Positions 32,333 to 48,932 of a stretch of DNA of 64,000 bases are shown here, piece by piece (within the stretch, counting starts at the first letter, position 1; the number at the start of each line of letters is the position of its first letter). This DNA comes from Gemmatimonadota bacterium. Lineage in GTDB: Bacteria; Gemmatimonadota; Gemmatimonadetes; Gemmatimonadales; GWC2-71-9. A program made the translations under genes and the position numbers. The DNA is taken from positions 256,001 to 320,000 of the forward strand of contig JBDHAB010000001.1 of NCBI GenBank assembly GCA_039588295.1. Reading direction: 5' to 3'. The notes under the pieces were generated by a model, which saw nothing but the letters and a program-made list of their open reading frames with translations, made no database searches and was not told where the DNA came from.

Positions 32333-33373
32333 ATGGTCAGTCCAGCAGTAGCCCTACTCATTTTCGGTGCCGCTGCCCTGCTTCTTGCCGGGGTGTTTTG
32401 GCCGCGGCAGGGCCTGGTCGCTCGGCTCATGCGCCTCGCAGCCCTGACCGAGCGCGTGCGGCTCGAGGACGCGGTGAAGCACCTGCACGACTGTGACTAT
32501 CGAGGTCAACCAGCCTCGGTCGAGAGCGTGGCAGGGGCCTTGGAGGTAACACGGGCTCGTGCGGTGGGCTTCGTTGCGCGGCTCGAGGCACTGGGGCTCG
32601 TCCGGACTTCGGCGGAGCGTGTGGTACTCACGTCGGTGGGCCGGGCCGAGGCGCTCAGGCTGCTGCGCAGCCATCGCTTGTGGGAGCGCTACTTGGCAGA
32701 TCGCACCGGTTTGGGGCCTGCCGAGTGGCACGACGAGGCGGAACGCCTCGAGCACAGGCTCTCACCCACCAAGGTCGAGGCGTTGGCGTCATCGATGGGG
32801 CATCCGGTTTACGACCCCCATGGTGATCCCATCCCTACGGCCGCGGGCAAGCTCCCGCCGCGCGCCGGGTTTGCCGTGACTGCGCTGCGGCCGGGCCAGG
32901 CTGCGTCGATCGTGCACTTGGAGGACGAGCCGCGAGCGGTGTTCGAGCAGCTGGTCGCGGCCGGGCTGGCCCCGGGAATGCAAGTGCAGCTCCTCGATGC
33001 GTCCGCCGAGCGCGTTCGCCTGTTGGCCGACGGGCGGGTGCATGCGCTCGAGCCGGTGATCGCCACGAACATCACGGTCGCACCGACTGAGGGGCTGCCG
33101 GAACCCGCCGGGCCGTTCGAAACCCTGGCGGATTTGGAAACCGGAGACCGCGTTGTCGTGCGTGACATCGCGCCGGTGTGCCAGGGTCCCCAGCGGCGAA
33201 GGTTGCTGGACCTCGGCCTGGTGCCGGGCACGGAGGTCGCGGTGGAGTTCAGGGGTCCCCTCGGTGAGCCGATCGCCTATCGCATTCGGGGTGCCGTAAT
33301 CGCGTTGCGACGCGAACAGGCGGAGCTGGTGCGGATCGAGCGAGATGGCGCGTCTGTTGAGGCCGCGACGTGA
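32333..33373 (+). CDS. DtxR/MntR-family metalloregulator with N-terminal TM helix and two FeoA domains
   Basis: EDAVKHL, RSHRLWERYL, EAERLEH, DPHGDPIP; two FeoA-like SH3 domains (GLAPG..., RRLLDLGLVPG...IALRRE). Confidence 0.9.
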   Translation: MVSPAVALLIFGAAALLLAGVFWPRQGLVARLMRLAALTERVRLEDAVKHLHDCDYRGQPASVESVAGALEVTRARAVGFVARLEALGLVRTSAERVVLTSVGRAEALRLLRSHRLWERYLADRTGLGPAEWHDEAERLEHRLSPTKVEALASSMGHPVYDPHGDPIPTAAGKLPPRAGFAVTALRPGQAASIVHLEDEPRAVFEQLVAAGLAPGMQVQLLDASAERVRLLADGRVHALEPVIATNITVAPTEGLPEPAGPFETLADLETGDRVVVRDIAPVCQGPQRRRLLDLGLVPGTEVAVEFRGPLGEPIAYRIRGAVIALRREQAELVRIERDGASVEAAT

Positions 33374-35613
33374 CCTCAACGGCGGCCGCTCCCTGTGTGG
33401 GGTGTCATGCGAATCGGGCGAGCAGCCTTGTTCAGCTGGGTGTCCGGCCGGGCCGATGGGACTATCTCGTCGCGCTCGCCGGGAATCCCAACACCGGGAA
33501 GAGCACGGTCTTCAACGCCCTGACTGGGCTGCGTCAACACACCGGGAACTGGCCTGGTAAGACGGTCGTTCGCGCGGAGGGCGGCTTCGAACTCCACGAC
33601 GCTCGGGTCAAGCTCATCGATCTGCCGGGTACGTACTCCCTCCAGGCGGGGAGCGCCGACGAGGAAGTCGCACGCGATTTCATTCTGTTCGGTCGACCCG
33701 ACGTGACGGTCGTGGTAGTCGACGCGACCCGCCTCGAGCGGAACTTGAACCTGGTGCTCCAGATTCTCGAGATCACCGATCGGGTCGTCGTGTGTCTCAA
33801 CCTCATGGACGAGGCTCGCCGTCATGGCGTGGGCATCGACGTTGCCAAGCTCGCCAAGGAACTGGGCGTGCCGGTCATCCCGACCGTGGCCCGCCAGGGC
33901 AACGGCGTTCCCGAGTTGCTGGAGGCGATCCACGAGGTGGCCACCGGGGCAGTGACGACGGCGCCGTTTCGGATCGAGCGGCACCCAGCGGACGTTGAAG
34001 CCGCCATCGGTACACTCGTCCGGACGATCCGTGAGTCCTACCCCGAGCTCCCCAATGCCCGGTGGGTGGCGCTGCGCCTGCTCAATGCGGATGAGCGAGT
34101 CGAATCCGCGGTACGGGCGGGCGATTTGGGCGATCTGTCGGAACGTCCGTGGCTCGAGGCCGGCGAGACGGTCGCGGTGGAGTCGGATCCGGGTGCGTCT
34201 CCCGTGGGGGAGCGGATTCTCGACCACGCGACCTCGCTTCGATGGACGCTCAGCCCCCGGTTCCACGACTCGTTGACCGAGAGTATGTACGGCGAGGCGC
34301 AACGCATTGCCGGCGGGTCGATGGTGCGCGGCCTCAAGCGCACGAAGTTCGACATGGATCGCTTCCTCGACCGTCTATTGACGAGCAAGCGCTTCGGGTT
34401 CCCGATGATGTTGCTCATCCTGGCGCTTGTCTTCTGGGTCACGATCTCCGGGGCCAACGTCCCATCGCAGCTCCTCGCGACGTTGTTCATCGACACGTTA
34501 CATCCGGCGCTCACGGGATTCGCGGCTGCGATCGGGATTCCGCCGTGGATCAACGGTCTCGTGTTGGACGGGGTGTACCTCGCAACCGCCTGGGTCGTGA
34601 GCGTGATGCTGCCGCCGATGGCCATCTTCTTTCCGCTCTTCAGCCTGCTCGAGGACTTCGGTTACCTCCCCCGAGTGGCCTTCAACTTGGACACGCTCTT
34701 CAAGAAGGCGGGTGCGCACGGGAAGCAGGCGCTCACGATGTGCATGGGCTTCGGGTGCAACGCGGCGGGCGTGGTCGCGACGCGGGTCATCGACAGCCCA
34801 CGCGAGCGACTCATCGCAATCATCACCAACAACTTCTCGCTCTGCAACGGCCGCTGGCCCACACAGATTCTCATTGCGACGATCTTCATCGGCGCCCTCG
34901 CACCCGCGCATTTTGCGGGACTCGTAGCCGCGAGTGCCGTGGTCGGCATCGCGGTCCTCGGGATCGTCGCGATGTTCGTGGCGTCGTGGCTGCTCTCGCG
35001 CACGGTGTTGCGGGGCGAGGCAACCACGTTCAGTCTCGAGCTGCCGCCGTATCGTCCGCCGAGGATTCTCCAGACCCTCTATACGTCGATCATCGACCGC
35101 ACCCTCATCGTCTTGTGGCGAGCCGTTCTGTTCGCTGCACCGGCGGGGGCGGTGATTTGGCTGGTCTCGAACGTCTACATCGGCGATGCCAGCCTCGCGA
35201 AGCACCTGATCGACGTGCTCGATCCGTTCGGTCTGCTGATCGGACTCAACGGGGTCATTCTGCTGGCGTACGTTGTGGCGATCCCCGCAAACGAGATCGT
35301 GATTCCCACGGTCCTGATGTTGACGGTGCTGACGCTGGGTTTGGGCGACCTCGGATCTGGTGCCGGAGTGATGTTCGAGCTCAATTCGGCCTCGGCAACG
35401 GGAGACCTGCTGCGTGCGGGCGGGTGGACCCTCGTGACGGGCATCAACCTGATGCTCTTCAGCCTTCTCCACAATCCGTGTTCGACGACACTCTACACGA
35501 TCTACAGGGAAACCGGGAGCGCTAAGTGGACCGCTGTCGCGACGCTGCTGCCGCTCGGCATGGGATTCTCCGTGTGTTTCCTGGTCACGCAGGTCTGGTT
35601 ACTGCTGGCCTGA
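33370..35613 (+). CDS. feoB: Ferrous iron (or Mn) transporter FeoB
   Basis: GNPNTGKS, GNWPGKTV, DLPGTYS, LEDFGYLPR, GFGCN, LELPPY. Confidence 0.96.
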   Translation: MTSTAAAPCVGCHANRASSLVQLGVRPGRWDYLVALAGNPNTGKSTVFNALTGLRQHTGNWPGKTVVRAEGGFELHDARVKLIDLPGTYSLQAGSADEEVARDFILFGRPDVTVVVVDATRLERNLNLVLQILEITDRVVVCLNLMDEARRHGVGIDVAKLAKELGVPVIPTVARQGNGVPELLEAIHEVATGAVTTAPFRIERHPADVEAAIGTLVRTIRESYPELPNARWVALRLLNADERVESAVRAGDLGDLSERPWLEAGETVAVESDPGASPVGERILDHATSLRWTLSPRFHDSLTESMYGEAQRIAGGSMVRGLKRTKFDMDRFLDRLLTSKRFGFPMMLLILALVFWVTISGANVPSQLLATLFIDTLHPALTGFAAAIGIPPWINGLVLDGVYLATAWVVSVMLPPMAIFFPLFSLLEDFGYLPRVAFNLDTLFKKAGAHGKQALTMCMGFGCNAAGVVATRVIDSPRERLIAIITNNFSLCNGRWPTQILIATIFIGALAPAHFAGLVAASAVVGIAVLGIVAMFVASWLLSRTVLRGEATTFSLELPPYRPPRILQTLYTSIIDRTLIVLWRAVLFAAPAGAVIWLVSNVYIGDASLAKHLIDVLDPFGLLIGLNGVILLAYVVAIPANEIVIPTVLMLTVLTLGLGDLGSGAGVMFELNSASATGDLLRAGGWTLVTGINLMLFSLLHNPCSTTLYTIYRETGSAKWTAVATLLPLGMGFSVCFLVTQVWLLLA

Positions 35614-35751
35614 GCAGAATGGGCGGGGTTGGCGCCGCCGACGCAAGAGGGCGCCGGAACAACGGCGGTGTCCGGTGGTGGCACCCGGACAGCCGTGCCT
35701 GACGCCCTCCTGCTCGATGGGTGGCTCGCGGGCTCGTTGGCCCGCGACGGT

Positions 35752-36195
35752 CTACTGTGACGCCTGACGCAGATACTCGTAAATCGCCCGTGCTTCCTCG
35801 ACCGTCGTCCCCATGGGGACCATCGGAGTTCCGTACTCGGCGAGGAGCTCTTTGGCCGTCGCGTCGTCTCGCAGCATCGAATCCGGCCGCACGGTCATCC
35901 CCACGAACCAATCGTACTCGCGCCGCTCGGTCACACCCCGCAGTGCAGGACCGATCAGTCGCGTATCGAGCTGGTGGCAGCCGACGCAGCCGCGCGACTG
36001 GAAGTAGCCTTCACCCTCGCTCGCGAGCGCTTCGTCGATCGGACCGCTCGGTGCCGCCATCGTCGCGGCGGGCGCGGTCTCGGTGACAGCCGGCTCCGCA
36101 GTGTCGGCCTGCTCAGTTTGCGCGCCTTCTCCGCCACAGCCAAACGCGAGTGCCACCATCAACAAGAAAGCACCATTCCGGGCTTGCATGTTCAC
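35752..36195 (-). CDS. Lipoprotein monoheme cytochrome c
   Basis: Lipobox-like LAFGC, Ala/Thr/Pro linker, CVGCH, IGPAL, distal Met (TPMVPM). Confidence 0.88.
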   Translation of the reverse strand: MNMQARNGAFLLMVALAFGCGGEGAQTEQADTAEPAVTETAPAATMAAPSGPIDEALASEGEGYFQSRGCVGCHQLDTRLIGPALRGVTERREYDWFVGMTVRPDSMLRDDATAKELLAEYGTPMVPMGTTVEEARAIYEYLRQASQ

Positions 36196-36358: not shown

Positions 36359-36742
36359 CTACTTCTCTTTGTGGCTCAAGCTCCATACGTACGCGCCAAC
36401 GGCTCGGATCTGCTTCTCCGAGAGTGCGCTCCCGCCCTTCGGCGGCATGACGGAACCTGTCGACGACTTGTCGGGGCTCACTCCGGCAAGGATGGACTTC
36501 ACGATTCCGTCGAGCGAGCCGTCGCTGTGCAGCCACTCGTCGTCCGTGAGGTCTGCCCCGAGGTTGGGGATGCCCTTCGCGGTAGAGCCATGGCAGGCTG
36601 CACACAAGCCCTGACCCTTGTAGAGCGAGGCACCCTCCTCGATCATCTGTTTCGTGACCTCTTCCTTTTGTGCTTGCGCCAGACCCACCGAGAGTGTGGT
36701 AACGAGTGCCGCAAGGGCGAACGTACGGATCAGCCGTCCCAT
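36359..36742 (-). CDS. Periplasmic class I monoheme cytochrome c
   Basis: Signal peptide (AQA), CAACHG, GADLTDDEW, MPPKGG; GGAGG SD. Confidence 0.9.
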   Translation of the reverse strand: MGRLIRTFALAALVTTLSVGLAQAQKEEVTKQMIEEGASLYKGQGLCAACHGSTAKGIPNLGADLTDDEWLHSDGSLDGIVKSILAGVSPDKSSTGSVMPPKGGSALSEKQIRAVGAYVWSLSHKEK

Positions 36743-36761
36743 GCTTCATCCCTCCGATGTC

Positions 36762-37967
36762 TTAGAATGCTGTCGAGAGCCCGATCGTCCACCGGGCTTC
36801 GTCCAGCTGGGTGTCCCACGTTGCTTCTCCGAGCACTCTGAAGTTTCGCCTCACTAGATACCCCGCGCCAGCGGTGAGCGTTTCATAGCGCCCGATGTTC
36901 CCCGGGGCACCGAGCCGCACGTTGAGCAGAGGGCGATCGGCGTCGATGAGGTTGTAGAGTCCCAGGACGTACCAGCGTGCGTTGGCTGGGTGCAGCACCA
37001 GCTCGGCAAACCCGCCATCCAGGGTTGCCTCGGGCTCGCCAGACGTAAAGGTCGGCGTGTCGTCCTCTCGGTGGAGATACTGCACGTTCAACTCGATCGG
37101 CCCTGCCGTGACTGTCGCGTCGGCCCCGGCCATCCAGACGGTATTCTTGACCGTTGGTCCGGTGCCGACTGCTCCCTCCTGTTGTCCGAAGTATCCCATG
37201 GCGCCGAGGCGGAGGTTGGGTGTAAGGTCGCGCGTTACGTGACCGAATACGTTCTTGAAGGGATCGTTGTCGAGTCGGCGGTTCGGCTCCGCTTCCCCTC
37301 TGCCGTTCCCATTCACGACCTCGCCCGTGATTGTAAAGCCCGCGACATCGACCATCACCATCAGACCGCGGTCGTAAGTGAGGTCGGTTGGCTGCAGGCC
37401 GACTCGAGCACGGTAGACGGCGTAATCGTGGTTCTCCAACCGAAGCTCTCGCTTGAACATGGGGTCCGACACCTGAAACTGTCCGGCCGCGAGGTCGATC
37501 GGCTGCCCGGCGATGTTGTCGAGGTACACAAATGCATCCTCGATGCCTCCGACTTCCCCGCGCTCGAACAGGAAGAAGTAGAGGTAGTACGAGAACTTCC
37601 GCGAGATCGGCCCACCGGAGAGAATCTTGACGTTGTACGGGGTTTGTAGGTCGGAGCCGGACTCACCGGCGGTATACGCGCTGATGTACGCGTCCACCCG
37701 GATCGCGAGTGGGAGATCGCGATAGAGTTGGAGGAGTTCGTCACCCGTGTTGATGGTGTCGCGCGGCGGCGCGTTGGCACTCATGCGGAAGCCGTTTCCG
37801 GCGTACTGTTCCCCAAACGCGTTGAGCTTTGGAAGCAGCGTGTGACAGAGACTGCAGCTCACGCGATGGCGCCTGGCAAAGGCCGGAATGAGAGATGCGT
37901 CGGCGATGGGTGCTGCGACACAGGCGATGGCGAGTATGAAGGTGGTGATTCGAGCGGCCCGCAGCAT
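36762..37967 (-). CDS. Cyc2-like monoheme cytochrome c-porin fusion
   Basis: Signal peptide, IPAFARR-x4-CSLCH-x3-PKLNAFG-x5-NGF, then beta-strand-rich body ending in Phe (WTIGLSTAF). Confidence 0.8.
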   Translation of the reverse strand: MLRAARITTFILAIACVAAPIADASLIPAFARRHRVSCSLCHTLLPKLNAFGEQYAGNGFRMSANAPPRDTINTGDELLQLYRDLPLAIRVDAYISAYTAGESGSDLQTPYNVKILSGGPISRKFSYYLYFFLFERGEVGGIEDAFVYLDNIAGQPIDLAAGQFQVSDPMFKRELRLENHDYAVYRARVGLQPTDLTYDRGLMVMVDVAGFTITGEVVNGNGRGEAEPNRRLDNDPFKNVFGHVTRDLTPNLRLGAMGYFGQQEGAVGTGPTVKNTVWMAGADATVTAGPIELNVQYLHREDDTPTFTSGEPEATLDGGFAELVLHPANARWYVLGLYNLIDADRPLLNVRLGAPGNIGRYETLTAGAGYLVRRNFRVLGEATWDTQLDEARWTIGLSTAF

Positions 37968-38051: not shown

Positions 38052-38273
38052 CTAGTGCTGCTGGGGATGTGAGTCGTGCGTTCGGGTATCGAGATGAAGG
38101 AGCGTATACAGAGGACAACTGTGGGTCAACGCGGTGGCAGCAAAGAGGAGCGCAAACACGGCGGCAACGAGAGAAATCACCACCTGCTCGTTGAACACCG
38201 TCGCGACGATCAGCAGAACTACGGCGCATGCGCCGCGAATCCAGGCATCCATCCTGCCGATGTTGGGTTGCAT
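38052..38273 (-). CDS. DUF2892 (YgaP-like) small membrane protein
   Basis: N-I-G-x-x-D-x-x-I-R, two TM helices, CPLY. Confidence 0.85.
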   Translation of the reverse strand: MQPNIGRMDAWIRGACAVVLLIVATVFNEQVVISLVAAVFALLFAATALTHSCPLYTLLHLDTRTHDSHPQQH

Positions 38274-38360
38274 GGCACCCCGTCCATTTGACATGCCATG
38301 CAGAACTTTGGGGACGCTGTATGAAGCTATCCATAACGCAATGTGAAGGTGCGTTCCGAC

Positions 38361-39749
38361 TTATTCGGTGGGTACGAAACGCGGGATGTCCAGAGTGATC
38401 CGCAAGCCGCCGAGCGGACTCTGGTCAGCATGGATTCGGCCGCCGTGTGCGTGCACGATGGCGGCGGTGATGGTGAGTCCCAGACCCGCGGCGCCGGTGC
38501 GCGCCCTTGCTACGTCACTGCGGTAGAAGTGCTCGAACAGACGTGAAAGTCGCTCGGGCGGCATGCCCGGGCCGGAATCGTCGATGGAGATCGTCACGGT
38601 TCGGAGGCTCGCGGTGACCGCAGCCCGCACGCGCGTGCCGGGGGGAGTATGCTCGATCGAGTTGTCCAAGAGTTGATCCACGGCGACGTTGAGCATTGCG
38701 GGATCGACGAAGGCGCTGGTTTCTTGAGGCGAGCGCTCGAAGTCAACGGTGCGTCCCGCTCCTCGTGTCCGTGCCTTTTGTACCGCGCGCTCCATGATCG
38801 TGCCGACATCCGATTCCATGCGCGACAAGGTCAGTTCGCCCGCCTCGAGACGTGCAAGAAGCGTGAGCGACTCACTAATAGACGTGAGGTGATCGACCTC
38901 CTCTAGGACGCTGCCGAGGATGGCCCGGTATTCCTCGGAGCGGCGGTCCCCCCGCAACGCGATCTCCAATTCCCCTCGCATTGCAGTAAGGGGAGTGCGC
39001 AGGTCGTGACCGGCGTCGGCGATCATGCGGCGTTGCGCCTCGAAGGCACGTTCGAGTCGGCCGAACACCGTGTTGAGGACCTCGATCAGGCCGGCAAACT
39101 CTTCGACATCTGCGTGCGCCGTAATCCGCTGGCCCGCGCCTGGCTGAATCGATTGTGCCTGCTCGGTAATCTCGAGCACCGGTCTGACGGTAGTTGTCGC
39201 GAGCCAGCCTGCGCCGATCGCCGTCGCGACGGTGCCGAGCAGCACCGTGCCCAGCATGAGGAATAGCACCTCACGGGTACTCGCCTGCAAGGGTCGGAGC
39301 GACGCCGCAACCTGCGTGACGACATGTTGGGATCGGCTGCCGGCCGGCGTGGGCGCGTAGTACGAACGCAGCGTCCCGCGCGCCCACTCCTGCGTCGCCC
39401 ACACAGTGTCACCGGTGAGTGCGTGTTCGAAGGCGTCCCGTGCCAACGGGAGCTCCGCCGCCAGCCCCGTGTTCGATTCGATGATGTCACCGTTCTCGTC
39501 CCGTATGGCTACGAATCGGTTCACGCGTTGGATGAACCGATCCACGTCCGCCGAGCCAGGGTGAATGGCGATCGGCAGCCGGGATGCGAGCACCGCGGCC
39601 TCGAGTTGCGCGGATGCCGCCAGGTTCCGGTCGAGGGCCTCCCGCAGAATCCGCCGTGTGCCATGATAGGCCCACAGCGCAATCAGGAGGAGAGCAACGA
39701 AGATGGTGAGGGAGAACCGCACGGCAACCGTGCGGCGGAGAGCATACAT
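38361..39749 (-). CDS. Sensor histidine kinase (CusS/CzcS-like, 2TM-HAMP-HisKA-HATPase)
   Basis: ADAGHDLRTPL, DSGPG, FYRSD, GLGL. Coupled to the upstream regulator (TGATG). Confidence 0.93.
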   Translation of the reverse strand: MYALRRTVAVRFSLTIFVALLLIALWAYHGTRRILREALDRNLAASAQLEAAVLASRLPIAIHPGSADVDRFIQRVNRFVAIRDENGDIIESNTGLAAELPLARDAFEHALTGDTVWATQEWARGTLRSYYAPTPAGSRSQHVVTQVAASLRPLQASTREVLFLMLGTVLLGTVATAIGAGWLATTTVRPVLEITEQAQSIQPGAGQRITAHADVEEFAGLIEVLNTVFGRLERAFEAQRRMIADAGHDLRTPLTAMRGELEIALRGDRRSEEYRAILGSVLEEVDHLTSISESLTLLARLEAGELTLSRMESDVGTIMERAVQKARTRGAGRTVDFERSPQETSAFVDPAMLNVAVDQLLDNSIEHTPPGTRVRAAVTASLRTVTISIDDSGPGMPPERLSRLFEHFYRSDVARARTGAAGLGLTITAAIVHAHGGRIHADQSPLGGLRITLDIPRFVPTE

Positions 39750-40435
39750 CAGCCTTGGGTGTTGTTTGTCTTCTTCAAGCAGAACCCGACGCCGCGGACT
39801 GTTTGAATCAGTCCATCGTAGCCCACCTCACGGAGCTTACGCCGCAGATTGCCGACATGGACATCGACGACGTTGCTTTCGGGATCGAAGTGCATATCCC
39901 ACACCTTCTCCAGCAACTCCGTTCTCCGCACCACGTCCTCGGGATGGAGCATGAAGTGCTCGAGAAGCTGGAACTCACGTGGAGTGAGGTCGAGGGTGTG
40001 TTCCCCGACCCAAGCCTTGTGCTTCAGTCGGTCGAGTTCGAGCGGCCCATAGTTGAGGCGATCGAGCCTTGCCGCGCCGCCCCGACGCACGAGGGCGCGG
40101 AGCCGCGCGAGCATTTCATCGAACTTGAACGGCTTCGTGAGATAGTCATCTGCGCCGGCGTCGAGGCCGCGAACAACGTCCTCGGTGGCGTCGCGCGCCG
40201 TCAGCATGAGAATAGGCGTGTTGCGCCCTTCCCGTCGAAGCTCTGAGGCCACCTGGAGGCCGTTCTTCTTCGGCAGCATCAAGTCCAGGACGATCGCGTC
40301 ATAATCGTTGATGTGTGCGAAGACGGTTGCCTCCTCACCGTCCTTGGCGACATCGACGGCGTAGCCTTCTTCACGAAGGCCCATCTCTATGAATCCAGCA
40401 ACCTTACGGTCGTCCTCGACTACGAGAATGCGCAT
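39749..40435 (-). CDS. OmpR-family response regulator (CusR-like)
   Basis: MRILVVEDD, LDLMLP, GADDYLTKPF, SNVVDVHV, TVRGVGF. Confidence 0.95.
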   Translation of the reverse strand: MRILVVEDDRKVAGFIEMGLREEGYAVDVAKDGEEATVFAHINDYDAIVLDLMLPKKNGLQVASELRREGRNTPILMLTARDATEDVVRGLDAGADDYLTKPFKFDEMLARLRALVRRGGAARLDRLNYGPLELDRLKHKAWVGEHTLDLTPREFQLLEHFMLHPEDVVRRTELLEKVWDMHFDPESNVVDVHVGNLRRKLREVGYDGLIQTVRGVGFCLKKTNNTQG

Positions 40436-40493
40436 GAAGGGAACCGTAGCCGGGCACGGGTAAGTGGGTGCTGAAGCGACTGTGAACCGGTCT

Positions 40494-41741
40494 TTATGAT
40501 GGCTCCATGCGTCGCGGCACCTGCAGAGAGAAGCGGGCTCCGTGCCCGAGCTGACTCTCGACCCGGAGATCGCCGCCCAAGAGGCGCGCAAGCTTGCGTG
40601 AGAGTGCGAGCCCCAGTCCGGTGCCGCGTTCGGTGTGCTTGCCGGCGCGTTCGAAGGCCTCGAAGATGACCACTTGCTGCTCGGGCGCAATGCCTTCGCC
40701 ATGGTCGACGACGTCGAAGCGCAGTGTGTCGTCCGTCGCGTGGAGCTCGACGCGAATGGCCTGGTCCTGAGGGCTATGTCGTACCGCGTTCGTGAGCAGG
40801 TTGATCAGTATCTGACGGATCCGCTGCGGATCGGTATGGCACTCGACGACCCCGTCCGGGCCAGTCAGCGCGACACCGACGCCGCGCCGCTCGGCCGCGG
40901 GCTCGACCGTCGACACCGCCTCTCGCACGACGTCCCACGCGTCTGCCTTCTCGACAGCGGGCTCGAGTTTGTCCGCATCGATGCGGCTGAGATCGAGCAG
41001 GTCCTCAAGGAGGTTCAGCGCTCGTTCCGCGGACTCCTGCACTTCCAGTGCCGCTCTGGGCGTACTGGGGCTCGTCTTTCGTATCCAGAGCTCGGTCCAT
41101 CCGTGGACCGCCGTGAGCGCGTTGCGCAACTCGTGGTTCGTCATGGCGAAGAAGCGCTCGCGTGAGTCGTGCATCTGCCGAAGTTCGCGGACGAGCCCCT
41201 CGCGTTCCTCGTAGTGTCGGGCGTTTTCGAGGGCCACGGCAGCGTGAGCCGCCAACATCACCGCGAAGGCCTCGTCCTCGGCGGTAAACTCGGGTGCACC
41301 GATCTTCTCCGTCAGGTAGAGGTTCCCGATCGGACCCGTGCGCCCCCATATGGGCACGCCGAGGAACGACTTCATGGGTGTGTGGTGGGGTGGGAACCCC
41401 AACGCCTTCGCATGTTTCCGCAAATCCTTCAGTCGAATGGGCTTTGGGTCGGTTATCAGCAGGCCCAAGAGGCCCTTGCCGGTGGGGGGATGGCCGACCT
41501 GTGCCTCGCTCGCCTGGTTCGTCCCGCTCGTGAGGAACCGTTCGAGCCCGGTCCCCTCCCGGTTGACGACGCCAAGCGCTGCGTAGCGGGCCTCGATCAC
41601 CGCGCGCGCCGACTCCACCACCTCTCGCAGCACTCCGTCCAGATCGAGCGCGGACGTGATGCGGATCGCGGCTTGACTGAGACGTTCCGCGCGCTGCCAC
41701 ACGGTGTGACTACCACGTGAATCGGGAGACATACTGTCCAC
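40494..41741 (-). CDS. Cytoplasmic GAF-domain histidine kinase (DosS/DevS-type GAF)
   Basis: ARYAALGV, GHPPTGKGLLG, GFPPHHTPMKSFLGVP, NLYLTEK; NHELRN, NAVRHS, GTGLGL. Confidence 0.9.
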   Translation of the reverse strand: MDSMSPDSRGSHTVWQRAERLSQAAIRITSALDLDGVLREVVESARAVIEARYAALGVVNREGTGLERFLTSGTNQASEAQVGHPPTGKGLLGLLITDPKPIRLKDLRKHAKALGFPPHHTPMKSFLGVPIWGRTGPIGNLYLTEKIGAPEFTAEDEAFAVMLAAHAAVALENARHYEEREGLVRELRQMHDSRERFFAMTNHELRNALTAVHGWTELWIRKTSPSTPRAALEVQESAERALNLLEDLLDLSRIDADKLEPAVEKADAWDVVREAVSTVEPAAERRGVGVALTGPDGVVECHTDPQRIRQILINLLTNAVRHSPQDQAIRVELHATDDTLRFDVVDHGEGIAPEQQVVIFEAFERAGKHTERGTGLGLALSRKLARLLGGDLRVESQLGHGARFSLQVPRRMEPS

Positions 41742-41839: not shown

Positions 41840-42571
41840 GTGGATCCTACGTTCGTCGTCCTGATCTATTCAGTGGGCGCAGCCAGCGTTAGCGGCCTCG
41901 GGGCGGTCCCGCTGATGGTCCGAGCTCGGCTGCCACTCTCGTGGATCGGGTGGTCGAACGCGCTCGCGGCCGGACTCATGCTGGGAGCCGCCTACGCGCT
42001 GATGGTCATGGGGCTCGAGCGAGTCACCGGGGCCGAAATGCTCGGTGCGTTGATCGGGATCGGTTTTGTGTATTGGACGCACGCAGTCTCAGGCACGGCC
42101 GATCTCGACTTGAACCGCCTCGAGGAGACGAGCCCGGTCTACGGGTACAAGGTGCTGCTCAGCGACACGCTCCACGCGTCCGCCGAAGGCGTGGCCATCG
42201 GCGTCGCGATGACGGTGAGCCTGCCGTTCGGAGCGTTCATGGCGCTCGCGATCGCGGTCCATAACATTCCCGAGGCGACGGTGCTTGCGGCGATCCTCAC
42301 GAGTCGCGGTGTCCGGCTGCGTGACGCGGCGGGGCTCGCCGTTGCCGCCAACGTGAGTCAAGTTCTGCTGGCGATCGTGAGCTTCGCACTCATCACCGCC
42401 GCGCCCGCATTGCTCCCATGGGGACTCGGCTTTGCGGTCGGATCCTTGGTCTATCTCGTGATGGTCGAGCTGCTTCCCGAATGTTACCGACAGGCGGGAC
42501 ACACGAGCATCGCATTGGTGACCATCGTTGCGATGGGGATTCTGGTGCTGCTGGTTGGCGGCGGGATGTAG
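41840..42571 (+). CDS. ZIP-family (ZupT/GufA-like) metal transporter, copy 1
   Basis: AAGLML, LHASAEG, HNIPEA, VELLPE; about 8 TM. Confidence 0.88.
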   Translation: MDPTFVVLIYSVGAASVSGLGAVPLMVRARLPLSWIGWSNALAAGLMLGAAYALMVMGLERVTGAEMLGALIGIGFVYWTHAVSGTADLDLNRLEETSPVYGYKVLLSDTLHASAEGVAIGVAMTVSLPFGAFMALAIAVHNIPEATVLAAILTSRGVRLRDAAGLAVAANVSQVLLAIVSFALITAAPALLPWGLGFAVGSLVYLVMVELLPECYRQAGHTSIALVTIVAMGILVLLVGGGM

Positions 42572-42583
42572 GTGAGGTAACAC

Positions 42584-43312
42584 ATGAACCAGGTCTTCGT
42601 TGTGTTCCTCTATGGCCTCGCGACGGCTCTCGCGACTGGACTGGGAGCAGTGCCGTTCGCCTTCGCGCGACGGGTCTCGCCGAGCGCCATTGCGTACGCC
42701 AATGCGGTCGCCTCCGGCCTGATGCTCGGCGCGAGTTTCGGGCTCGTGGCCGAAGGGACGGACTACGGGAGTTGGCAGACTGTGCTCGGCGCATTGTCGG
42801 GTGTGGCGTTCATCCGGCTCACCCAAGTACTCCTGCGGCGACACGACCTTGAGTTTGGCAAGGTCCGCGGCGGGGGTGCGCGGCAGATGCTGTTGATGCT
42901 GATCGTCATGACCGTGCACTCGTTTGCCGAAGGGGTCGCCGTCGGCGTGTCCTTCGGCGGCGGCATGACGCTCGCCTTCGTGATCGTGGTCGCCATCGCC
43001 GTCCACAACATTCCTGAAGGGCTCGCCATCAGTGCCGTGTTGCGTCCCCGTGGCATGTCGGTGGCGGCCTGTGCCGGCTGGAGCATCATGTCCTCGCTCC
43101 CGCAGCCGATCATGGCGGTGCCGGCCTTCCTCCTCGTTGACGCCTTCACCCGCGTGCTTCCGTACGGCATTGGGTTCGCCGCCGGCGCGATGGTCTTCTT
43201 GGTACTCGAAGAGCTATTGCCGGAGGCGTTCGATCGGGCGCGACGTCCCCACGTCGCCCTGGTGGTGAGTCTCACGCTCGTCGGCATGATGGTGTTCCAA
43301 CGCTTCCTGTGA
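42584..43312 (+). CDS. ZIP-family (ZupT/GufA-like) metal transporter, copy 2
   Basis: ASGLML, VHSFAEG, HNIPEG, SSLPQP, FAAGAM, ELLPEA. Confidence 0.92.
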   Translation: MNQVFVVFLYGLATALATGLGAVPFAFARRVSPSAIAYANAVASGLMLGASFGLVAEGTDYGSWQTVLGALSGVAFIRLTQVLLRRHDLEFGKVRGGGARQMLLMLIVMTVHSFAEGVAVGVSFGGGMTLAFVIVVAIAVHNIPEGLAISAVLRPRGMSVAACAGWSIMSSLPQPIMAVPAFLLVDAFTRVLPYGIGFAAGAMVFLVLEELLPEAFDRARRPHVALVVSLTLVGMMVFQRFL

Positions 43313-43415: not shown

Positions 43416-45038
43416 TCAGAACGGCCGGAACCCTGGAGACCCGAACGTCTCCATGGCGAGATGGCTGCTGAGTGGGTAGGCGTATGCGATAACGACGAGC
43501 ACGACTGCCACGACGACCCACACCCACATCCGATCGAAGACACCGAGACGCTGCGGGTTCCCGGCGACCGGCACTGCAAACTCCAGTGCCGGCTGCTCAC
43601 GACGTTGGCCGGCGAGGACAGTGCCCAGCATCACGAGCAGGAAGAAGGACGCACTGATGAAGAGGAGAATGCCTCCGAGTGCAGAGACTAGTGTGAGGCT
43701 TGACCACTGTGCGGCGATCTCGCTGCCACCATACCCTGTCTCGAACACACGCCGCGGCATGCCCATGAGTCCGGTGATGTGGTTCGAAATGGAGAACAGC
43801 AGCATCCCGAGGAACCACAAGTAGGGCTGCACTCTAGCGAGCAGTCCCAACTCGAGTTCTCGGCCCGTCAGTTTCGGCACGAGCCAGTAGGAAGCGCCCA
43901 TGAACGTGAGTGCCGTTGCGGTGCCAACCGTCAAGTGAAAGTGGCCCTGGATCCACGCGGTGTTGTGCACCATCGAGTTCATGCCGAAGGCGGCGTTGAT
44001 GGATCCTCCGAATCCGCCGATGGCGAAGAGCAACATGCTCAGTAACACAGACGCCACCAATGGGTCGCCCCACGGGAGCTTCCCCAACCAGTCGAACAGG
44101 CCGCGCGCGCCCTTCATCCGGCCGGCCACCTCGAGCGACGCGGTCACTGTGAACGCGGTGACGAAGCTGGGAAACAGAATGCCGAAGGTCGTCAGGGTGT
44201 GCACCATCTTCCAGCCCGAACTGATGCCTGGGTCCATGAACTGGTGATGGAATCCGACGGGTGCCGAGAGGATGATGAACAGCGCGAAGACCATTCGAGC
44301 GAGCGGATCACTGAAGAGGCGCCCGCCGGCCACGCGTGGCACGACCGCGTACCAAATCACGTAGGCCGGGATGAGCCAGAAGTACACCAGCGGGTGCCCG
44401 AAGTACCAGAACAGCATTCGGGCGAGCAGTGGATCGACGGTCTCTTTCAGTCCAAGTGACCACGGCACGAGTTGGAACAGCATCTCCACAGCGACGCCGA
44501 CAGTGGCGAGGAGCCACACGATGATCGTGGTCATGATGCCGTAGACCGCGAGGGGTACCGGCTGTCCGGGATTGTCCCGCCGCCACCCCAAGTACGTGGC
44601 GATCGTCACCGCGCTCCAAATCCAGGATCCCACGACCACCAGCGTGAGCCCGATGTAGAATGCCGGATGGGCCTGCATGGGAGGGTAGAACGTGTACAAC
44701 ACGCTGGCCTTCCCCCAAAGAATGGCCCAGCCGGCGGCGAGCGTTCCGATGACCGCGACCCAGAACCCAACCCAGGCGAGTCCGGCGCCCTTGAGCGGTC
44801 GGCCCAGCGCCCGGGTCGTGAGCGCCACGCCCAATCCCATGATGAAGAAGGTCGTGAAGATCAGGGCCATCAGCACGCCATGACCGGTGACCGAGAGGTA
44901 GTACATGCTGGCGGTGCGCCCCGGCAGATCGAGGGCTGCGCGTGACAGCGCCTGCATGAATGCCATGAACGTCGCGATGCCGAAGGCACCCACCGCGACG
45001 CCAATGTTGGCCGTAGCGAGGCGTCGATTGTACATCAT
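43416..45038 (-). CDS. cbaA: B-family (ba3-type) heme-copper oxidase subunit I
   Basis: HGVLMA, LYTFYPP, FWYFGHPLVYFW, GFHHQF, HNTAWIQGHFH, GMPRR. Confidence 0.95.
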   Translation of the reverse strand: MMYNRRLATANIGVAVGAFGIATFMAFMQALSRAALDLPGRTASMYYLSVTGHGVLMALIFTTFFIMGLGVALTTRALGRPLKGAGLAWVGFWVAVIGTLAAGWAILWGKASVLYTFYPPMQAHPAFYIGLTLVVVGSWIWSAVTIATYLGWRRDNPGQPVPLAVYGIMTTIIVWLLATVGVAVEMLFQLVPWSLGLKETVDPLLARMLFWYFGHPLVYFWLIPAYVIWYAVVPRVAGGRLFSDPLARMVFALFIILSAPVGFHHQFMDPGISSGWKMVHTLTTFGILFPSFVTAFTVTASLEVAGRMKGARGLFDWLGKLPWGDPLVASVLLSMLLFAIGGFGGSINAAFGMNSMVHNTAWIQGHFHLTVGTATALTFMGASYWLVPKLTGRELELGLLARVQPYLWFLGMLLFSISNHITGLMGMPRRVFETGYGGSEIAAQWSSLTLVSALGGILLFISASFFLLVMLGTVLAGQRREQPALEFAVPVAGNPQRLGVFDRMWVWVVVAVVLVVIAYAYPLSSHLAMETFGSPGFRPF

Positions 45039-45511
45039 GAACCCTCCTCGACGATCAACTTCGCGGCCATGTTGTGATGCCCCGTGCCACAGTACTCGTT
45101 GCACACGATCAGATATTCACCCGGTGTGTCGAACGTCGTGGTGAGTTGGCTGACGTAGCCGGGGATGACCATGGTGTTCACGTTCGTCCCGACGATTTGG
45201 AACCCATGGACGATGTCGGGACTCGTCATGCGGAACGTGACGGGTCTCCCTGCGGGAACCCGGATCTCGCCGGGTTGAAAGACCCAAATCTGGGCGACCA
45301 GCGTCACCTCGACACTGCCGTCCGGATTGACCTTCACGCCGCGGTCGGCGAAGCGGGCGTCAGCGAACACCGTTCGCGGGTCAATGGTCTCGACGTGGCT
45401 CGGCGGCACACGTCCTTGCGAGACCGTGGCGAACCCGATGGCACCGAGAAACAGCACGATAATCGCGCCGGCGGCCCACATCCAGATTTTCTCATAGAGA
45501 TCGATGTGCAT
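45035..45511 (-). CDS. cbaB: ba3-type oxidase subunit II (CuA)
   Basis: One TM helix, DIVHGF, CNEYCGTGHHNM. Confidence 0.95.
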   Translation of the reverse strand: MHIDLYEKIWMWAAGAIIVLFLGAIGFATVSQGRVPPSHVETIDPRTVFADARFADRGVKVNPDGSVEVTLVAQIWVFQPGEIRVPAGRPVTFRMTSPDIVHGFQIVGTNVNTMVIPGYVSQLTTTFDTPGEYLIVCNEYCGTGHHNMAAKLIVEEGS

Positions 45512-45517
45512 GACGTC

Positions 45518-45658
45518 CTACCTCGTCACGACGCCGCGGGGCAGATACACGAAGAGAAAGATCGCGAGCCAGCCGACGGCAAACAGCAAGCCGTAGAGTC
45601 CGACCAGCGCCAGGGTTCCGCGCGGGTGCTTCCCGAGGTCCGGGGGTTGGTCACTCAT
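45518..45658 (-). CDS. ba3-type oxidase subunit IIa (46 aa; absent from the ORF track)
   Basis: Hand translation MSDQPPDLGKHPRGTLALVGLYGLLFAVGWLAIFLFVYLPRGVVTR; AAGGAG SD; single TM directly upstream of subunit II. Confidence 0.85.
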   Translation of the reverse strand: MSDQPPDLGKHPRGTLALVGLYGLLFAVGWLAIFLFVYLPRGVVTR

Positions 45659-45696
45659 GCAGCTCTCCTTGTCAGAACAGGGGACTACCGAATGGG

Positions 45697-46098
45697 TTAG
45701 ATCCTGCCCTCAGCGACGGCGCGCACGATATCGCTTTGCGCGACGACGCCAAGAAGCTCGTCGGCCGAAACGACAAACAGGCGGTGCACGTCTAGCTCGA
45801 GCATCTGTTTGGCAGCCAAGCGCACATCTGCGTCCGGTCCGATGGTTTTCGGGGGCGTGGTCATGATGTCACGCACCGTGGTATCCTCGAAGAATTCTTC
45901 GCCGTCACCGGAGCTCGATCGTTCGGCGGTCGCCTGCACGATGTCGCTGGAGGACAGCACGCCGACCAGCCGCCCGCGGCGATCGACCACCGGTACGGCG
46001 TGCACGTGGGCATCGGCCAACTGCATCACTGCCTCTTGGACCAAGACGTCTTGGTGAACGACCGTGAGATCGGTGATCATCAATGATGCAACGTTCAT
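45697..46098 (-). CDS. CBS-pair domain protein
   Basis: VASLM, VPVVD..GRLVGVLS..DI, VRDIMT, VHRLFVV. Confidence 0.92.
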   Translation of the reverse strand: MNVASLMITDLTVVHQDVLVQEAVMQLADAHVHAVPVVDRRGRLVGVLSSSDIVQATAERSSSGDGEEFFEDTTVRDIMTTPPKTIGPDADVRLAAKQMLELDVHRLFVVSADELLGVVAQSDIVRAVAEGRI

Positions 46099-46198
46099 GG
46101 CGTCTCGCCCTCTTGGCGTCCCAGCAGCGCGTGGTGCTGGCGGGGTATGCTACGGAAACGCGCCGCCGACGCAAGTCCTTGGCGCATCGTTGCGTGAG

Positions 46199-47071
46199 TC
46201 AACGATTCTGGCCCGCCCCCCGGACGGGAACGACCAGCACGGATGTCGGCAGCCGGTTCAGGAGCCGTTCCGTCGTGCTACCGAGCAGCACGCGATCCAC
46301 CCAGCCCTTGCCGTGCGAACCCACGATGACGAGGTCTGCCTTCCATTCGGCGGCTTCGTCGGCTATAGAGCGGGCCGGAGCACCGACCCGAACCACCCTG
46401 TCGAGTTGGCGGCCGGGTGCTGCCGCGTCCAGCAGCTCGTTGGTGCTCGCCTCGGCCAGTCGGATGTGCTCCTCTTCGTTGAGCTGTACGCCTACGTCCG
46501 GGACGGAGGGAAGCGGCTCGACCACGTGAAGGACTCGCAGCGTTGCCGCGAACGCGTTGCTGAACCGCTGCGCCGCGTGGAGTGCCAGCGCGGCGGCATC
46601 TGACTGGTCCACCGCAACCAGCACGCGGTGGAACGTCGTCATCGGTGCTGTGACCACGAGGAGCGGGACATCGATCGTTCGCACCGCGTTGTGGACCGTG
46701 CTCCCACCGAACCATCGGACGGGTGCGGCGTGGTGCTTGCCGCCCAGAACAAGCAACTCGGCTCGGTGTTGGGTGACCGCTTGGGCCAGCATCCACGTCG
46801 GGTTGCCGACGCGGACCTCGAGGCGCTCGAGCGCCTCCGGCTGCACGCGGTTGCGGAGGTACTCCTCGACCGCTCCACGAGCCGCCGCGGTCCACCCCTC
46901 GGCCAGCCGTTCGCGATCTCGTGTGGGAAGATGAGGTGCGGTGGGCTCCTTGGCCACGTGGACCAGGTGGCAGGGCGCACTGGTGGCCTGGGCCACAGCG
47001 AGGCCGGCAGCGGCCGCCTGCACTCCCTCGGGCGAAGGATCGACGCCGACCACGACCGGTCGCCAAGTCAT
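46199..47071 (-). CDS. Tandem universal stress protein
   Basis: VVVGVD, LLVLG...FGGSTV, VLVAVD, IVGSHG...LLGSTTERL. Confidence 0.93.
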   Translation of the reverse strand: MTWRPVVVGVDPSPEGVQAAAAGLAVAQATSAPCHLVHVAKEPTAPHLPTRDRERLAEGWTAAARGAVEEYLRNRVQPEALERLEVRVGNPTWMLAQAVTQHRAELLVLGGKHHAAPVRWFGGSTVHNAVRTIDVPLLVVTAPMTTFHRVLVAVDQSDAAALALHAAQRFSNAFAATLRVLHVVEPLPSVPDVGVQLNEEEHIRLAEASTNELLDAAAPGRQLDRVVRVGAPARSIADEAAEWKADLVIVGSHGKGWVDRVLLGSTTERLLNRLPTSVLVVPVRGAGQNR

Positions 47072-47143
47072 GATGGCCGGCCCCGGCCCGAAGGCCGCGT
47101 GTGAGAGAGATCAGAATTGCGTGACACGGTTGGCGCCCAGGCG

Positions 47144-47173
47144 AGTGTAGCCGTCACTCCTGCGCCCCGTCAA
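47144..47173 (-). promoter_or_regulatory. sigma70 promoter for usp-CBS-ba3 genes
   Basis: Minus strand TTGACG, 18 bp spacer, TACACT, about 70 nt upstream of the usp ATG. Confidence 0.6.
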
Positions 47174-47253
47174 GCCGTGCCTCCAGGAGGCGGTGAAGCC
47201 GGATTCAGCCCAATTTCACTCCAACTTCATAGCGTATTCGCTAGGCTGGGGCC

Positions 47254-47503
47254 GTCATCCTTCTTGGGTGGCCACTGCGGGAATGCCCTTTGAGGGAAGG
47301 GCCGGCGTTCGCGGCGCCGCTAAGGTTCGAGGGGGTTTTGGCATCGGCCGCAGGCAAGACGAACGGGATCGTTGCGCATGTAATCCGATGCATTGAGACC
47401 GGCAAAGCCCTGTGTCACCGCCCGGTCTATGGCGCATGAACCGAACCTTGGAGGGAAATCCCTCACCCCCGGTGCACGGGAGGGCACCGGGGGTTTCTTT
47501 TTT
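47254..47503 (+). ncRNA. Putative structured non-coding RNA, family not recognised
   Basis: Multiple nested stems ending in a plus-strand intrinsic terminator, although both neighbouring genes are on the minus strand. Confidence 0.55.
47465..47503 (+). terminator. Rho-independent terminator
   Basis: ACCCCCGGTGC/GCACCGGGGGT stem followed by TTTCTTTTTT. Confidence 0.85.
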
Positions 47504-47516
47504 GCCCGGAGTTGGC

Positions 47517-48932
47517 CTACCGTCGTTGCGGTCCGGCCAGCTCGACCTTCATGCCGTCCTCGGCAACCTGTGCGGTCCAGCCGTACCGCTCTCGAATCGC
47601 CCCTGCCAACGTCTCGGCCGCGGTCGGTTCGCCGTGCACCAGGTAGGTTTCGAGCGGCGGTTCCTCAAAACCGGAGAGCCATTGTAGGAGTTCGCTCTGG
47701 TCGGCGTGGGCGGAGAGGCCGTCCAGCGTGTCGACGCTGGCTCGCACCCTGATATCGCGGCCGTGAATTCGAACCTCGTCGGCACCTTCCTGCAGCCGCC
47801 GGCCACGCGTTCCGGCCGCCTGGAATCCAGCCAGCAGCACCGTGGTGCGCCGGTCGGAGAGTCGGAGCTTGAGGTGATGGAGAATCCGGCCGCCCGTGGC
47901 CATGCCGCTCGCGGAAATGATGACGACGGGTCCGCGGATGTCGTTGAGCGCCATCGAATCTTCCTGCGACTTGGCGAGGCTGAAGTTCTCCGGATACAGC
48001 GGGCACTGTCCCGTCTTCCGCACCATTTGCATGTCCAGATCGTGCTCGTTGGTATGCGTGAGGTAGATGTCGGTGACGTCAATCGCCATTGGGCTGTCGA
48101 TGTAGACGGGAAGCTCCGGGATACGTTTCTCGTCCTCCAATTGGCGGATCCACCACAGCAGTTCCTGCGTGCGGCCGACCGCGAAGGCGGGTACGAGAAG
48201 AGCCCCACCACGCTCTGCAGCAACACGGACACATTCCGCCAGTTCCTCGTGGACGTCTCGAGGGTGGTGCCGGTTGCCGTAAGTCGATTCCAGGAGTAGG
48301 TAGTCGGCGCGCGGCACCGGTTGCGGGTCGTGCAGAATCGGGCGGCCCCACCGACCCAGGTCTCCGGAAAACACCAGTCGTGTCGGTGAGGGTCCGTCCA
48401 GCTCCAGGTCCACGGTGGCTGAGCCCAGGATGTGACCGGCGGTGCGGAACGTGGCCACCATCCCATCGGTCACCCGAATCGTCTCGCCGAAGGGCTGGGG
48501 CTGGAGCAGCTCGAGCGCGGCTTCGGCGTCCGCCATGGTGTAGAGCGGCAACGCCGGTTTGTGTTTTGAGTAGCCGAGATGGTTGGCGTGTGCGGCGTGT
48601 TTCTCCTGGAGATACGCTGAATCCCGCAACAGCGAGCCGAGGAGGTCGGCGGTGGAGCGGGTACAGTAGACGGGACCCCGGAAGCCCCGGCGCGCAATCA
48701 GCGGCAGGTAGCCGGAATGGTCGATGTGTGCGTGGCTCAGAACCACGGCGTCGAGCCTCTTGGGTTCGAACGGTGGTGCCTCCCAGTTGCGCAAGCGTAA
48801 CGCCTTGAGGCCTTGGAACAGGCCGCAGTCGAGCAGGACCTGCTTGCCGTTCGCGGCTACGAGGTGCTTCGATCCGGTGACGGTGCCCGCAGCACCCAGG
48901 AAGCGAACGGTTGGTGAGGTTCGTTTCTTCAT
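47517..48932 (-). CDS. MBL-fold beta-CASP ribonuclease (TTHA0252/YSH1-like)
   Basis: GAAGTVTGS, DCGLFQG, SHAHIDH, AGHILGS, FSGDLG, ESTYG, SASGM, SAHAD, VHGE. Confidence 0.93.
   Translation of the reverse strand: MKKRTSPTVRFLGAAGTVTGSKHLVAANGKQVLLDCGLFQGLKALRLRNWEAPPFEPKRLDAVVLSHAHIDHSGYLPLIARRGFRGPVYCTRSTADLLGSLLRDSAYLQEKHAAHANHLGYSKHKPALPLYTMADAEAALELLQPQPFGETIRVTDGMVATFRTAGHILGSATVDLELDGPSPTRLVFSGDLGRWGRPILHDPQPVPRADYLLLESTYGNRHHPRDVHEELAECVRVAAERGGALLVPAFAVGRTQELLWWIRQLEDEKRIPELPVYIDSPMAIDVTDIYLTHTNEHDLDMQMVRKTGQCPLYPENFSLAKSQEDSMALNDIRGPVVIISASGMATGGRILHHLKLRLSDRRTTVLLAGFQAAGTRGRRLQEGADEVRIHGRDIRVRASVDTLDGLSAHADQSELLQWLSGFEEPPLETYLVHGEPTAAETLAGAIRERYGWTAQVAEDGMKVELAGPQRR

Follow-up and report, generated by a model that had tools for sequence, protein, structure and literature searches.

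The locus described here lies in a window of 64,000 nucleotides (the whole stretch analysed; G000:C1:256001-320000) from a Gemmatimonadota genome, G000, that spans 4.5 Mb and is 96% complete. It holds a Cyc2-family fused cytochrome-porin with two monohaem cytochromes c, a ba3-type oxidase, two histidine kinases with an OmpR-family response regulator, and a candidate structured RNA gene. A sequence-only reading had seen in it a dedicated path from the outer membrane to O2; our comparison with relatives points instead to the hub of a predicted low-oxygen regulon whose respiratory modules are kept or lost separately. Each gene listed in that reading is an intact open reading frame in its place, and motifs, fold and alignments agree with the identities given to the Cyc2-like protein, the ba3 oxidase and the GAF kinase; the YgaP/DUF2892 gene, the regulator boxes and the RNA gene at 47254-47505 were absent from it. 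The principal features are as follows.

35752..36195, minus strand: lipoprotein monohaem cytochrome c of the nosZ-linked type (PF00034; best PDB match 3cp5, E 7e-22)
36359..36742, minus strand: soluble monohaem cytochrome c, CcoP-domain-like (PF13442)
36762..37967, minus strand: Cyc2-family fused cytochrome-porin, 401 aa (motif, 16-strand model, OprP/OprO fold)
38052..38273, minus strand: YgaP/DUF2892 small membrane protein, first gene of the Cyc2 unit (PF11127)
38321..38348, minus strand: triple direct-repeat regulator box, 11-bp period, before the YgaP-Cyc2-cytochrome unit
38361..39749, minus strand: membrane HisKA sensor kinase, OmpR class
39749..40435, minus strand: OmpR-family response regulator, 93-95% identical within the genus
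40460..40487, minus strand: triple box before the regulator gene, autoregulation predicted
40494..41741, minus strand: soluble kinase with a single DosS-type GAF on a HisKA core, a predicted haem O2/redox sensor
41840..42571, plus strand: ZIP/ZupT-like metal transporter 1 (PF02535)
42584..43312, plus strand: ZIP/ZupT-like metal transporter 2 (PF02535)
43416..45038, minus strand: B-family haem-copper O2 reductase subunit I, ba3-type (E 3e-123 to Thermus ba3)
45035..45511, minus strand: ba3 subunit II with the CuA motif H...CxxxCxxxH (PF00116)
45518..45658, minus strand: ba3 subunit IIa, 46 aa, single helix, kept before subunit II in relatives
45697..46098, minus strand: CBS-pair protein (PF00571)
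46199..47071, minus strand: tandem universal stress protein (USP; PF00582)
47144..47173, minus strand: sigma-70-like promoter TTGACG..TACACT before USP-CBS-ba3, with similar hexamers in genus relatives
47203..47247, plus strand: triple TTCA box and -10-like hexamer before the RNA gene
47254..47505, plus strand: candidate non-coding RNA, ~255 nt, multi-hairpin, ending in an intrinsic terminator

The soluble kinase carries a GAF domain whose best PDB matches are the DevS/DosS GAF domains (E 7e-37, 147 aligned residues), with GFPxxH and LYLT kept; GFPxxH recurs in 29/34 distinct GAF homologues. In DosS and DosT the GAF domain binds haem with a proximal His and distal Tyr, and both positions are retained in the aligned sequence, so far as that level of comparison goes. 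The kinase is predicted from these motifs to bind haem and to sense O2 or redox state. The sensor is present in 94/117 genomes of the family and stands directly before the regulator in 21/23 loci, the second kinase following the regulator in 17/23. Control by a DosS-type sensor system, as the sequence-only reading proposed, is supported by the retained haem motif and a shared upstream box. The system resembles Mycobacterium tuberculosis DosS/DosT-DosR (DevSR) in its haem-motif GAF domain and in having USP and CBS genes nearby, such genes being part of the DosR regulon. It differs in architecture and in its box: DosS has two GAF domains, a HisKA_3 core and a NarL-type partner (DosR), whereas the kinase here has one GAF, a HisKA core and a putative OmpR-family partner, and the box is a direct repeat rather than a palindrome. 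In the ResDE/SrrAB systems of Firmicutes an OmpR-family regulator turns on alternative respiratory genes and the small RNA RoxS/RsaE, a combination also predicted here; the sensor in our case is, however, a soluble haem-GAF kinase by prediction, and the RNA matches no Rfam family.

The membrane kinase and the regulator had been called CusRS-like. They score 215 of 292.55 and 220 of 279.2 bits, below the TIGR01386/01387 cut-offs, and the periplasmic part of the kinase holds 3 His, no Met and no Cys; we therefore dropped the label, and no features of a copper sensor were seen in the kinase. A -10-like hexamer at 40435-40445 (minus strand) lies 7-8 nt before the regulator ATG in relatives, suggesting that the regulator mRNA is leaderless.

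A half-site (C/G)TT(C/A)A(C/T) repeated at an 11-bp period was found de novo as the element common to the upstream regions of the regulator, YgaP and lipoprotein cytochrome genes. Direct repeats at this period are the geometry of OmpR-family sites. A matrix built from the regulator promoters of 18 relatives, with the window excluded, was scored over 4128 upstream regions of this genome, of which 22 reached at least 15 bits, against 3 in shuffled sequence. The Cyc2 unit ranked 16/4128 and the regulator 14/4128, the latter rank being partly circular. The box keeps its spacing to the -10 element and the start across genera and travels with genes to unlinked sites; Cyc2 genes far from the sensor have a box of their own in G189, G260, G222, G146, G218, G162 and G023. 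Among close Gemmatimonadota Cyc2 units, 17/35 reached at least 11 bits and 13/35 at least 14, against a background of 57 and 38 of 4128 (gene or operon leader scored; 4/39 loci dropped for missing upstream sequence; some of the 35 loci belong to genomes that also contribute to the 251-genome Cyc2 set used below). In 10 relatives the ba3 genes follow the regulator within a single run of genes, 9 of these showing the box, and in 4 further relatives they lie behind a boxed USP/CBS gene; a box also precedes nosZ or the cytochrome linked to it in G016, G022, G158 and G189.

At or beside high-scoring sites of this genome, 19 genes were annotated. They include three multihaem cytochromes with Pfam matches, a HypB-type GTPase, CcmE, PPDK, an Sdh/Frd anchor and an acyl-CoA ligase, and the set looks anaerobic-leaning, not purely so. 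Strong boxes also mark a large multihaem-cytochrome region (G000 C4:156641-180463) and a 5-haem cytochrome (C37:22493-23578), and the regulon may therefore include anaerobic or extracellular respiration. A haem-less OprO/OprP-type porin stands in the boxed cytochrome unit of G189, G158, G121 and G099 (L085:18357-19406).

The RNA gene lies between the USP and nuclease genes on the opposite strand and ends in an 11-pair terminator. Its triple box and -10 element are nearly invariant in 13 sequences and score 19.4 bits with the matrix trained elsewhere. No Rfam family reached its gathering score, the best match being 19 bits against a 39-bit cut-off and covering the terminator part alone. The window copy by itself gives a folding z of -2.1. 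Across the 13 sequences, from two families, 92.5% of cells pair and 24/50 pairs have changed on both sides; 0/500 shuffles reach this value and slid controls stay at or below 53%, in a test that leans in favour of the structure because the structure was derived from the same alignment. Models of the RNA found it in 9/150 genomes of the order and in 15/150 of the phylum, all in this family; inspection of 9 weaker matches gave 8 with an RNA body under the box and 1 with the box alone, and the box begins 49 nt upstream of the model in 5/6 copies checked. The RNA is a candidate new regulator. A peptide gene in its place was rejected, the frame being broken by a stop in G003, and likenesses to a cobalamin riboswitch, the hepatitis delta virus (HDV) ribozyme or signal recognition particle (SRP) RNA were by eye only, with no Rfam support. 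Shorter variants occur in another genus near Hsp20 and YgaP genes. The ba3 clade is also present in 11/15 of the RNA-bearing genomes, which may be kinship only.

The Cyc2-like protein had no match in Pfam, NCBIfam or PDB sequence searches, and an Atlas search returned unnamed clusters and one with Porin_O_P on 20% of its members. Relatives numbered 3111 among 8000 scored candidates, and the named homologues are Gemmatimonadales. The protein carries a single CxxCH within the motif IPAFAR-x5-CxxCH-x3-PKL. The core of the published family motif, AXPXFAR[Q/K][T/Y]..CXXCH..PXL (PMC8406198; papers are cited here from part of their text), is matched by LIPAFARRH-x4-CSLCH-TLL-PKL, with three degenerate positions differing. 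With 401 aa it exceeds the 365-aa minimum of the Cyc2 signature, and the hydrophobic N-terminal helix ending A-D-A was taken as its signal peptide from helix and sequence rather than from a dedicated predictor. The predicted model has 16 long strands (pLDDT, a model confidence score, 78), and a fold search with it ranked OprP (2o4v) first and OprO (4rjw) fifth, the two structural templates that PMC8406198 names for Cyc2. On indirect grounds, its nearest relatives coming from phyla with cluster III Cyc2, by elimination, in PMC9769843, the protein probably belongs to cluster 3. Signal peptide, PxFAR, one CxxCH, PxL, length, strand number and fold are shared with that cluster (PMC8406198, PMC7029218); the differences are the Q/K and T/Y positions, occupied here by R and H (in the consensus of the close family, by R and Y), a host in which autotrophy markers were not detected, and the monohaem cytochrome partner and low-O2-type box, which are undescribed in the parts of those papers available to us. 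Cyc2 homologues in Gemmatimonadota are already in print (PMC9769843, PMC11316326, PMC10367259), and heterotrophic Fe oxidation via Cyc2 has been proposed from expression data (PMC8114936). As for a distal haem ligand, no family-wide His or Met was seen in the Cyc2 homologues. At G000 C1:216072-217196 lies a second, unrelated-looking protein of 374 aa with a signal peptide and one N-terminal CxxCH, presumably of a different cytochrome-porin family.

By its motifs the oxidase belongs to the genuine O2 reductases of the B family of haem-copper enzymes. Subunit I aligns with Thermus ba3 at HPLVY, GFHH, HFH, AYxxxY and PSxxTAFT; the active-site His-x3-Tyr, the CuB and haem histidines and the K-channel motifs are all in place, and the CuA subunit II and subunit IIa are both present. 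A B-family-derived NO reductase was ruled out, as the active-site Tyr is kept. The I-II-IIa architecture, active-site His-Tyr, CuA and K-channel motifs are those of Thermus thermophilus ba3 (PDB 1ehk), from which the enzyme differs in gene context; here it is known from sequence, with the CtaA and CtaB genes elsewhere in the genome. A second B-family clade (L086-L091), at 42-48% identity and with the active-site Tyr retained, has two genes for small membrane proteins upstream of it; it lies outside the island, occurs in genus members that lost the island's ba3, and was counted apart. Near Cyc2 in G193, L066:969-3174 encodes subunits I and II of a divergent haem-copper enzyme (32% identity; motifs HHLLVD and HFHATV), which may be a B-derived NO reductase.

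Co-occurrence of these genes was counted over 251 genomes of the order, G000 included, with kinship uncorrected and assemblies incomplete. A Cyc2 orthologue is present in 36/251 (E 1e-40), nosZ in 118/251, the GAF sensor in 104/251, the close ba3 clade (at least 60% identity) in 40/251 and the second B clade in 12/251. Cyc2 genomes carry the close ba3 clade in 9/36 cases, against 31/215 of the others (p 0.14), and nosZ in 26/36 against 92/215 (p 0.001). Restricted to the 104 genomes with the sensor, the count shows no association of Cyc2 with ba3 (7/24 vs 23/80, odds ratio 1.0), and the corresponding figures for nosZ are 18/24 vs 42/80 (p 0.06). No B-family oxidase was detected at E 1e-100 in 22/36 Cyc2 genomes. 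By distances counted by hand from coordinates, Cyc2 and ba3 lie within 10 kb of each other in 3/36 genomes (G000, G024 and G158), and in 5 of the 9 pairs the genes are on different contigs; ba3 is within 15 kb of the sensor in 22/40 genomes and Cyc2 in 10/36. In G000 itself the two belong to different transcription units, the ZIP pair standing between them in opposite orientation.

Sensor, regulator, kinase and soluble cytochrome are present in all of 17 syntenic loci; Cyc2 is whole in 7, a remnant in 3 and undetected in 7. In the genus of 8 genomes, G000 alone has both Cyc2 and ba3 intact at the locus: Cyc2 is whole in G000, G003 and G006, and ba3 is at the locus in G000 and G007, G002 ending at a contig edge there. 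By the tree, Cyc2 was lost at least three times within the genus; the deletion ends differ, and both cytochromes were kept. Because neither co-conservation nor linkage was found, a dedicated Cyc2-ba3 module is unsupported, and the sequence-only reading fails the co-conservation check that it had itself set. GC content is flat along the region and no tRNA lies inside the window, so the region bears no mark of a recent foreign island.

The two cytochromes downstream of Cyc2, both of which had been assigned to it as carriers, differ in their usual neighbours. The soluble one is a usual Cyc2 neighbour, standing directly after Cyc2 in 20/37 relative loci in two families, with other cytochromes in that place in three further loci. 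Of 32 Cyc2 loci in other phyla, 29 have a 4-5-haem cytochrome gene immediately before Cyc2. From these two counts, the Cyc2 subfamily usually travels with a periplasmic cytochrome; the soluble cytochrome also persists where Cyc2 was lost. The phyla concerned include Ignavibacteria, Calditrichota, Aminicenantes, Zixibacteria and others, and the cytochrome there is highly conserved and c554/c552-like (e.g. L181:4656-6005), forming with Cyc2 a two-gene module outside Gemmatimonadota that has no close solved structure. The lipoprotein cytochrome, whose best PDB match 3cp5 we take to be a Rhodothermus cytochrome c, adjoins nosZ in 27/35 relatives, the exceptions being four genus members, G248, G110 and two contig ends. 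Cytochrome, Rrf2 and nosZ stand together in G016; G248 keeps Rrf2 and has lost nosZ; in this genome Rrf2-nosZ is on contig C6 and the cytochrome in the island. On this gene order the lipoprotein cytochrome is of the nosZ-linked type, apparently left in the island after the nos genes moved. The clade II nos cluster of Melioribacter roseus (PMC3534657) likewise brings the cytochrome c gene together with those for Rrf2 and nosZ, an arrangement shared by G016 and G022, and differs from the present case, where nosZ and Rrf2 are on C6 and the cytochrome is alone in the island. G158, which has ba3, Cyc2 and nosZ in one island, is probably close to the ancestral state.

The remaining genes of the island are accessory or flanking.

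32297..33373, plus strand: DtxR-type metal-binding/FeoA fusion, accessory (PF02742 and PF04023)
33370..35613, plus strand: FeoB ferrous iron transporter, accessory (TIGR00437 above cut-off)
47517..48932, minus strand: metallo-beta-lactamase/beta-CASP nuclease (PF10996, PF07521)

FeoB is at the locus in 2/17 syntenic loci. Immediately next to the island, 50245-56949 (plus strand) encodes a kinase of 2200 aa that carries about a dozen PAS domains, a GAF and HisKA_3; regulator genes follow it.

Besides caa3, ba3 and clade II NosZ, the genome encodes several complexes of the NrfD type and numerous multihaem cytochromes. A search gave no bd oxidase, making ba3 the only high-affinity oxidase seen. 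Autotrophy markers were not found in this 96%-complete genome: there is a RuBisCO-like protein only (KDE-H site) and no CooS, and a PRK-family match reads as a uridine kinase. Searches for ATP-citrate lyase and MtrB had no positive control and so are uninformative. The RuBisCO-like protein, at G000 C45:15182-16303 beside a cupin, has an active-site motif that is not a carboxylase's. The respiratory set, together with the RuBisCO-like protein alone and the lack of CooS, fits a facultative heterotroph. Cultured Gemmatimonadota use N2O in temporary anoxia (PMC10581226). The matching DNA sequencing runs listed are labelled marine sediment or sediment, and no RNA run is listed.

We put at roughly 65% the probability that the region is the hub of a Gemmatimonadales low-oxygen regulon, governed by a DosS-like GAF kinase and an OmpR-family regulator, in which independent respiratory modules are kept or lost separately. 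On a fall in O2 the GAF kinase would phosphorylate the adjacent regulator, which would bind the (C/G)TT(C/A)A(C/T) repeats, at their 11-bp period, just upstream of the -10 element and activate its own gene, the YgaP-Cyc2-cytochrome c unit and the ~255-nt RNA, as well as stress proteins and anaerobic respiratory genes elsewhere. In this scheme residual O2 would be scavenged by ba3 and N2O used by NosZ with the lipoprotein cytochrome, and the pair of Cyc2 and soluble cytochrome would connect the cytochromes of the periplasm with redox compounds in the surroundings. Genes, motifs, synteny, losses, the conserved box and the covariation of the RNA are direct observations; haem binding, the pairing of kinase and regulator, induction at low O2 and each step of electron transfer are predictions. 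Several observations weigh against this account. Expression and binding are predictions from sequence, and that this OmpR regulator is the one that binds the box is inferred from autoregulation; 5/34 GAF homologues are without GFPxxH. The box is missing from 18/35 close Cyc2 units and from 7/8 distant Gemmatimonadota units (1/8 at 11 bits or more), and the 7/32 units of other phyla that reach 11 bits probably do so from AT-richness. High-scoring sites also include a peptidase C1, a TonB receptor and five genes without family, which have no link to anoxia. G000, G007, G016 and G189 have no box of 10 bits or more before USP, CBS or IIa; in this genome the USP-CBS-ba3 unit scores 7.4 bits on its own strand (rank 114) and nosZ 7.6 bits (rank 104), and given the weak box and the plain sigma-70-like promoter, control of ba3 by the regulator is unsupported here. 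Over all 251 genomes, moreover, Cyc2 occurs together with any B-family oxidase above chance (14/36 vs 38/215, p 0.007, kinship uncorrected).

The path first proposed, a dedicated microaerobic metal-oxidation island in which electrons of Fe(II)/Mn(II) would reach ba3 by way of Cyc2 and the two cytochromes, is unlikely. All its parts are intact within 10 kb here and in G024 and G158, the Cyc2 motif and fold are as expected, Cyc2 and ba3 share a predicted regulon across the family, and no bd oxidase was found in the genome that could share the high-affinity role with ba3. Set against this are the independence of Cyc2 and ba3 among sensor-bearing genomes, the 22/36 Cyc2 genomes without a detected B-family oxidase, the repeated Cyc2 losses that left the cytochromes in place, the nosZ linkage of the lipoprotein cytochrome, and the 32 Cyc2 loci of other phyla, in whose fetched flanks no ba3 gene was seen. 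The function of cluster 3 is, besides, termed the most uncertain in PMC8406198. Chance grouping of unrelated stress, metal-uptake and respiratory genes around non-functional repeats would account for flanking genes that vary widely between genera and for the rarity of Feo; it is very improbable, since it is largely refuted by the conserved spacing of the box and by its presence before the same genes at unlinked sites, and core synteny holds in 17 loci.

Within the favoured regulon, Cyc2 and its cytochrome c are likely an electron conduit, in one direction or the other. For the Cyc2 link we tentatively prefer supplementary electron uptake, drawn from dissolved Fe(II) or further reduced compounds and delivered to the terminal enzyme that a given genome has, ahead of electron export, which appears less likely, and of a haem-gated channel, which appears somewhat less likely again. 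Taken as a whole reading, in which the regulon stands and Cyc2 with its cytochrome either exports electrons to Fe(III), humics or other cells in anoxia or forms a haem-gated channel without an energy role, this alternative seems improbable. The box also precedes multihaem cytochromes, the 4-5-haem cytochrome precedes the gene in 29/32 loci of other phyla, Cyc2 precedes 8- and 18-haem genes in G075, and the haem-less OprP-like porin shares the unit in four relatives, all of which suit export or a channel. The partner here is, by contrast, a class I monohaem cytochrome related to CcoP domains, a type usually at high potential. From the literature, one Cyc2 of -130 mV (PMC13692758) and the inability of annotation to tell oxidation from reduction (PMC11316326) point the same way as the multihaem genes, against which every biochemically tested Cyc2 in the consulted parts of the cited papers oxidises Fe(II) (PMC8406198, PMC7029218, PMC13692758). 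A bolder extension of the regulon reading, which we consider rather doubtful, is that in heterotrophic Gemmatimonadales an undescribed haem-GAF/OmpR oxygen switch turns on a Cyc2-cytochrome conduit feeding Fe(II) electrons to the cytochrome pool that serves both ba3 and clade II NosZ, so that a single organism would carry out Fe(II)-driven N2O reduction at oxic-anoxic boundaries, with the new structured RNA as part of the switch; it is based on the co-occurrence of Cyc2 with nosZ in 26/36 genomes and with this ba3 in 9/36.

The component families, and Cyc2 in Gemmatimonadota, are already known. The sensor-regulator pairing, the box, the place of Cyc2 in the regulon and the RNA were not found in our literature searches, nor was the Cyc2 and ba3 combination, as judged from the titles listed and with few subscription journals covered. 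Cyc2-like genes in heterotrophs are routinely taken as markers of iron oxidation, though the function of cluster 3 is unverified. With this Cyc2 subfamily assigned to a predicted low-O2 regulon and not coupled to ba3, experimenters know under which conditions to seek its expression; the case also warns that the neighbourhood in one genome should not be read as a pathway. The box provides a first testable handle on the possible control of microaerobic and N2O respiration in Gemmatimonadales, which are frequent among clade II N2O reducers.

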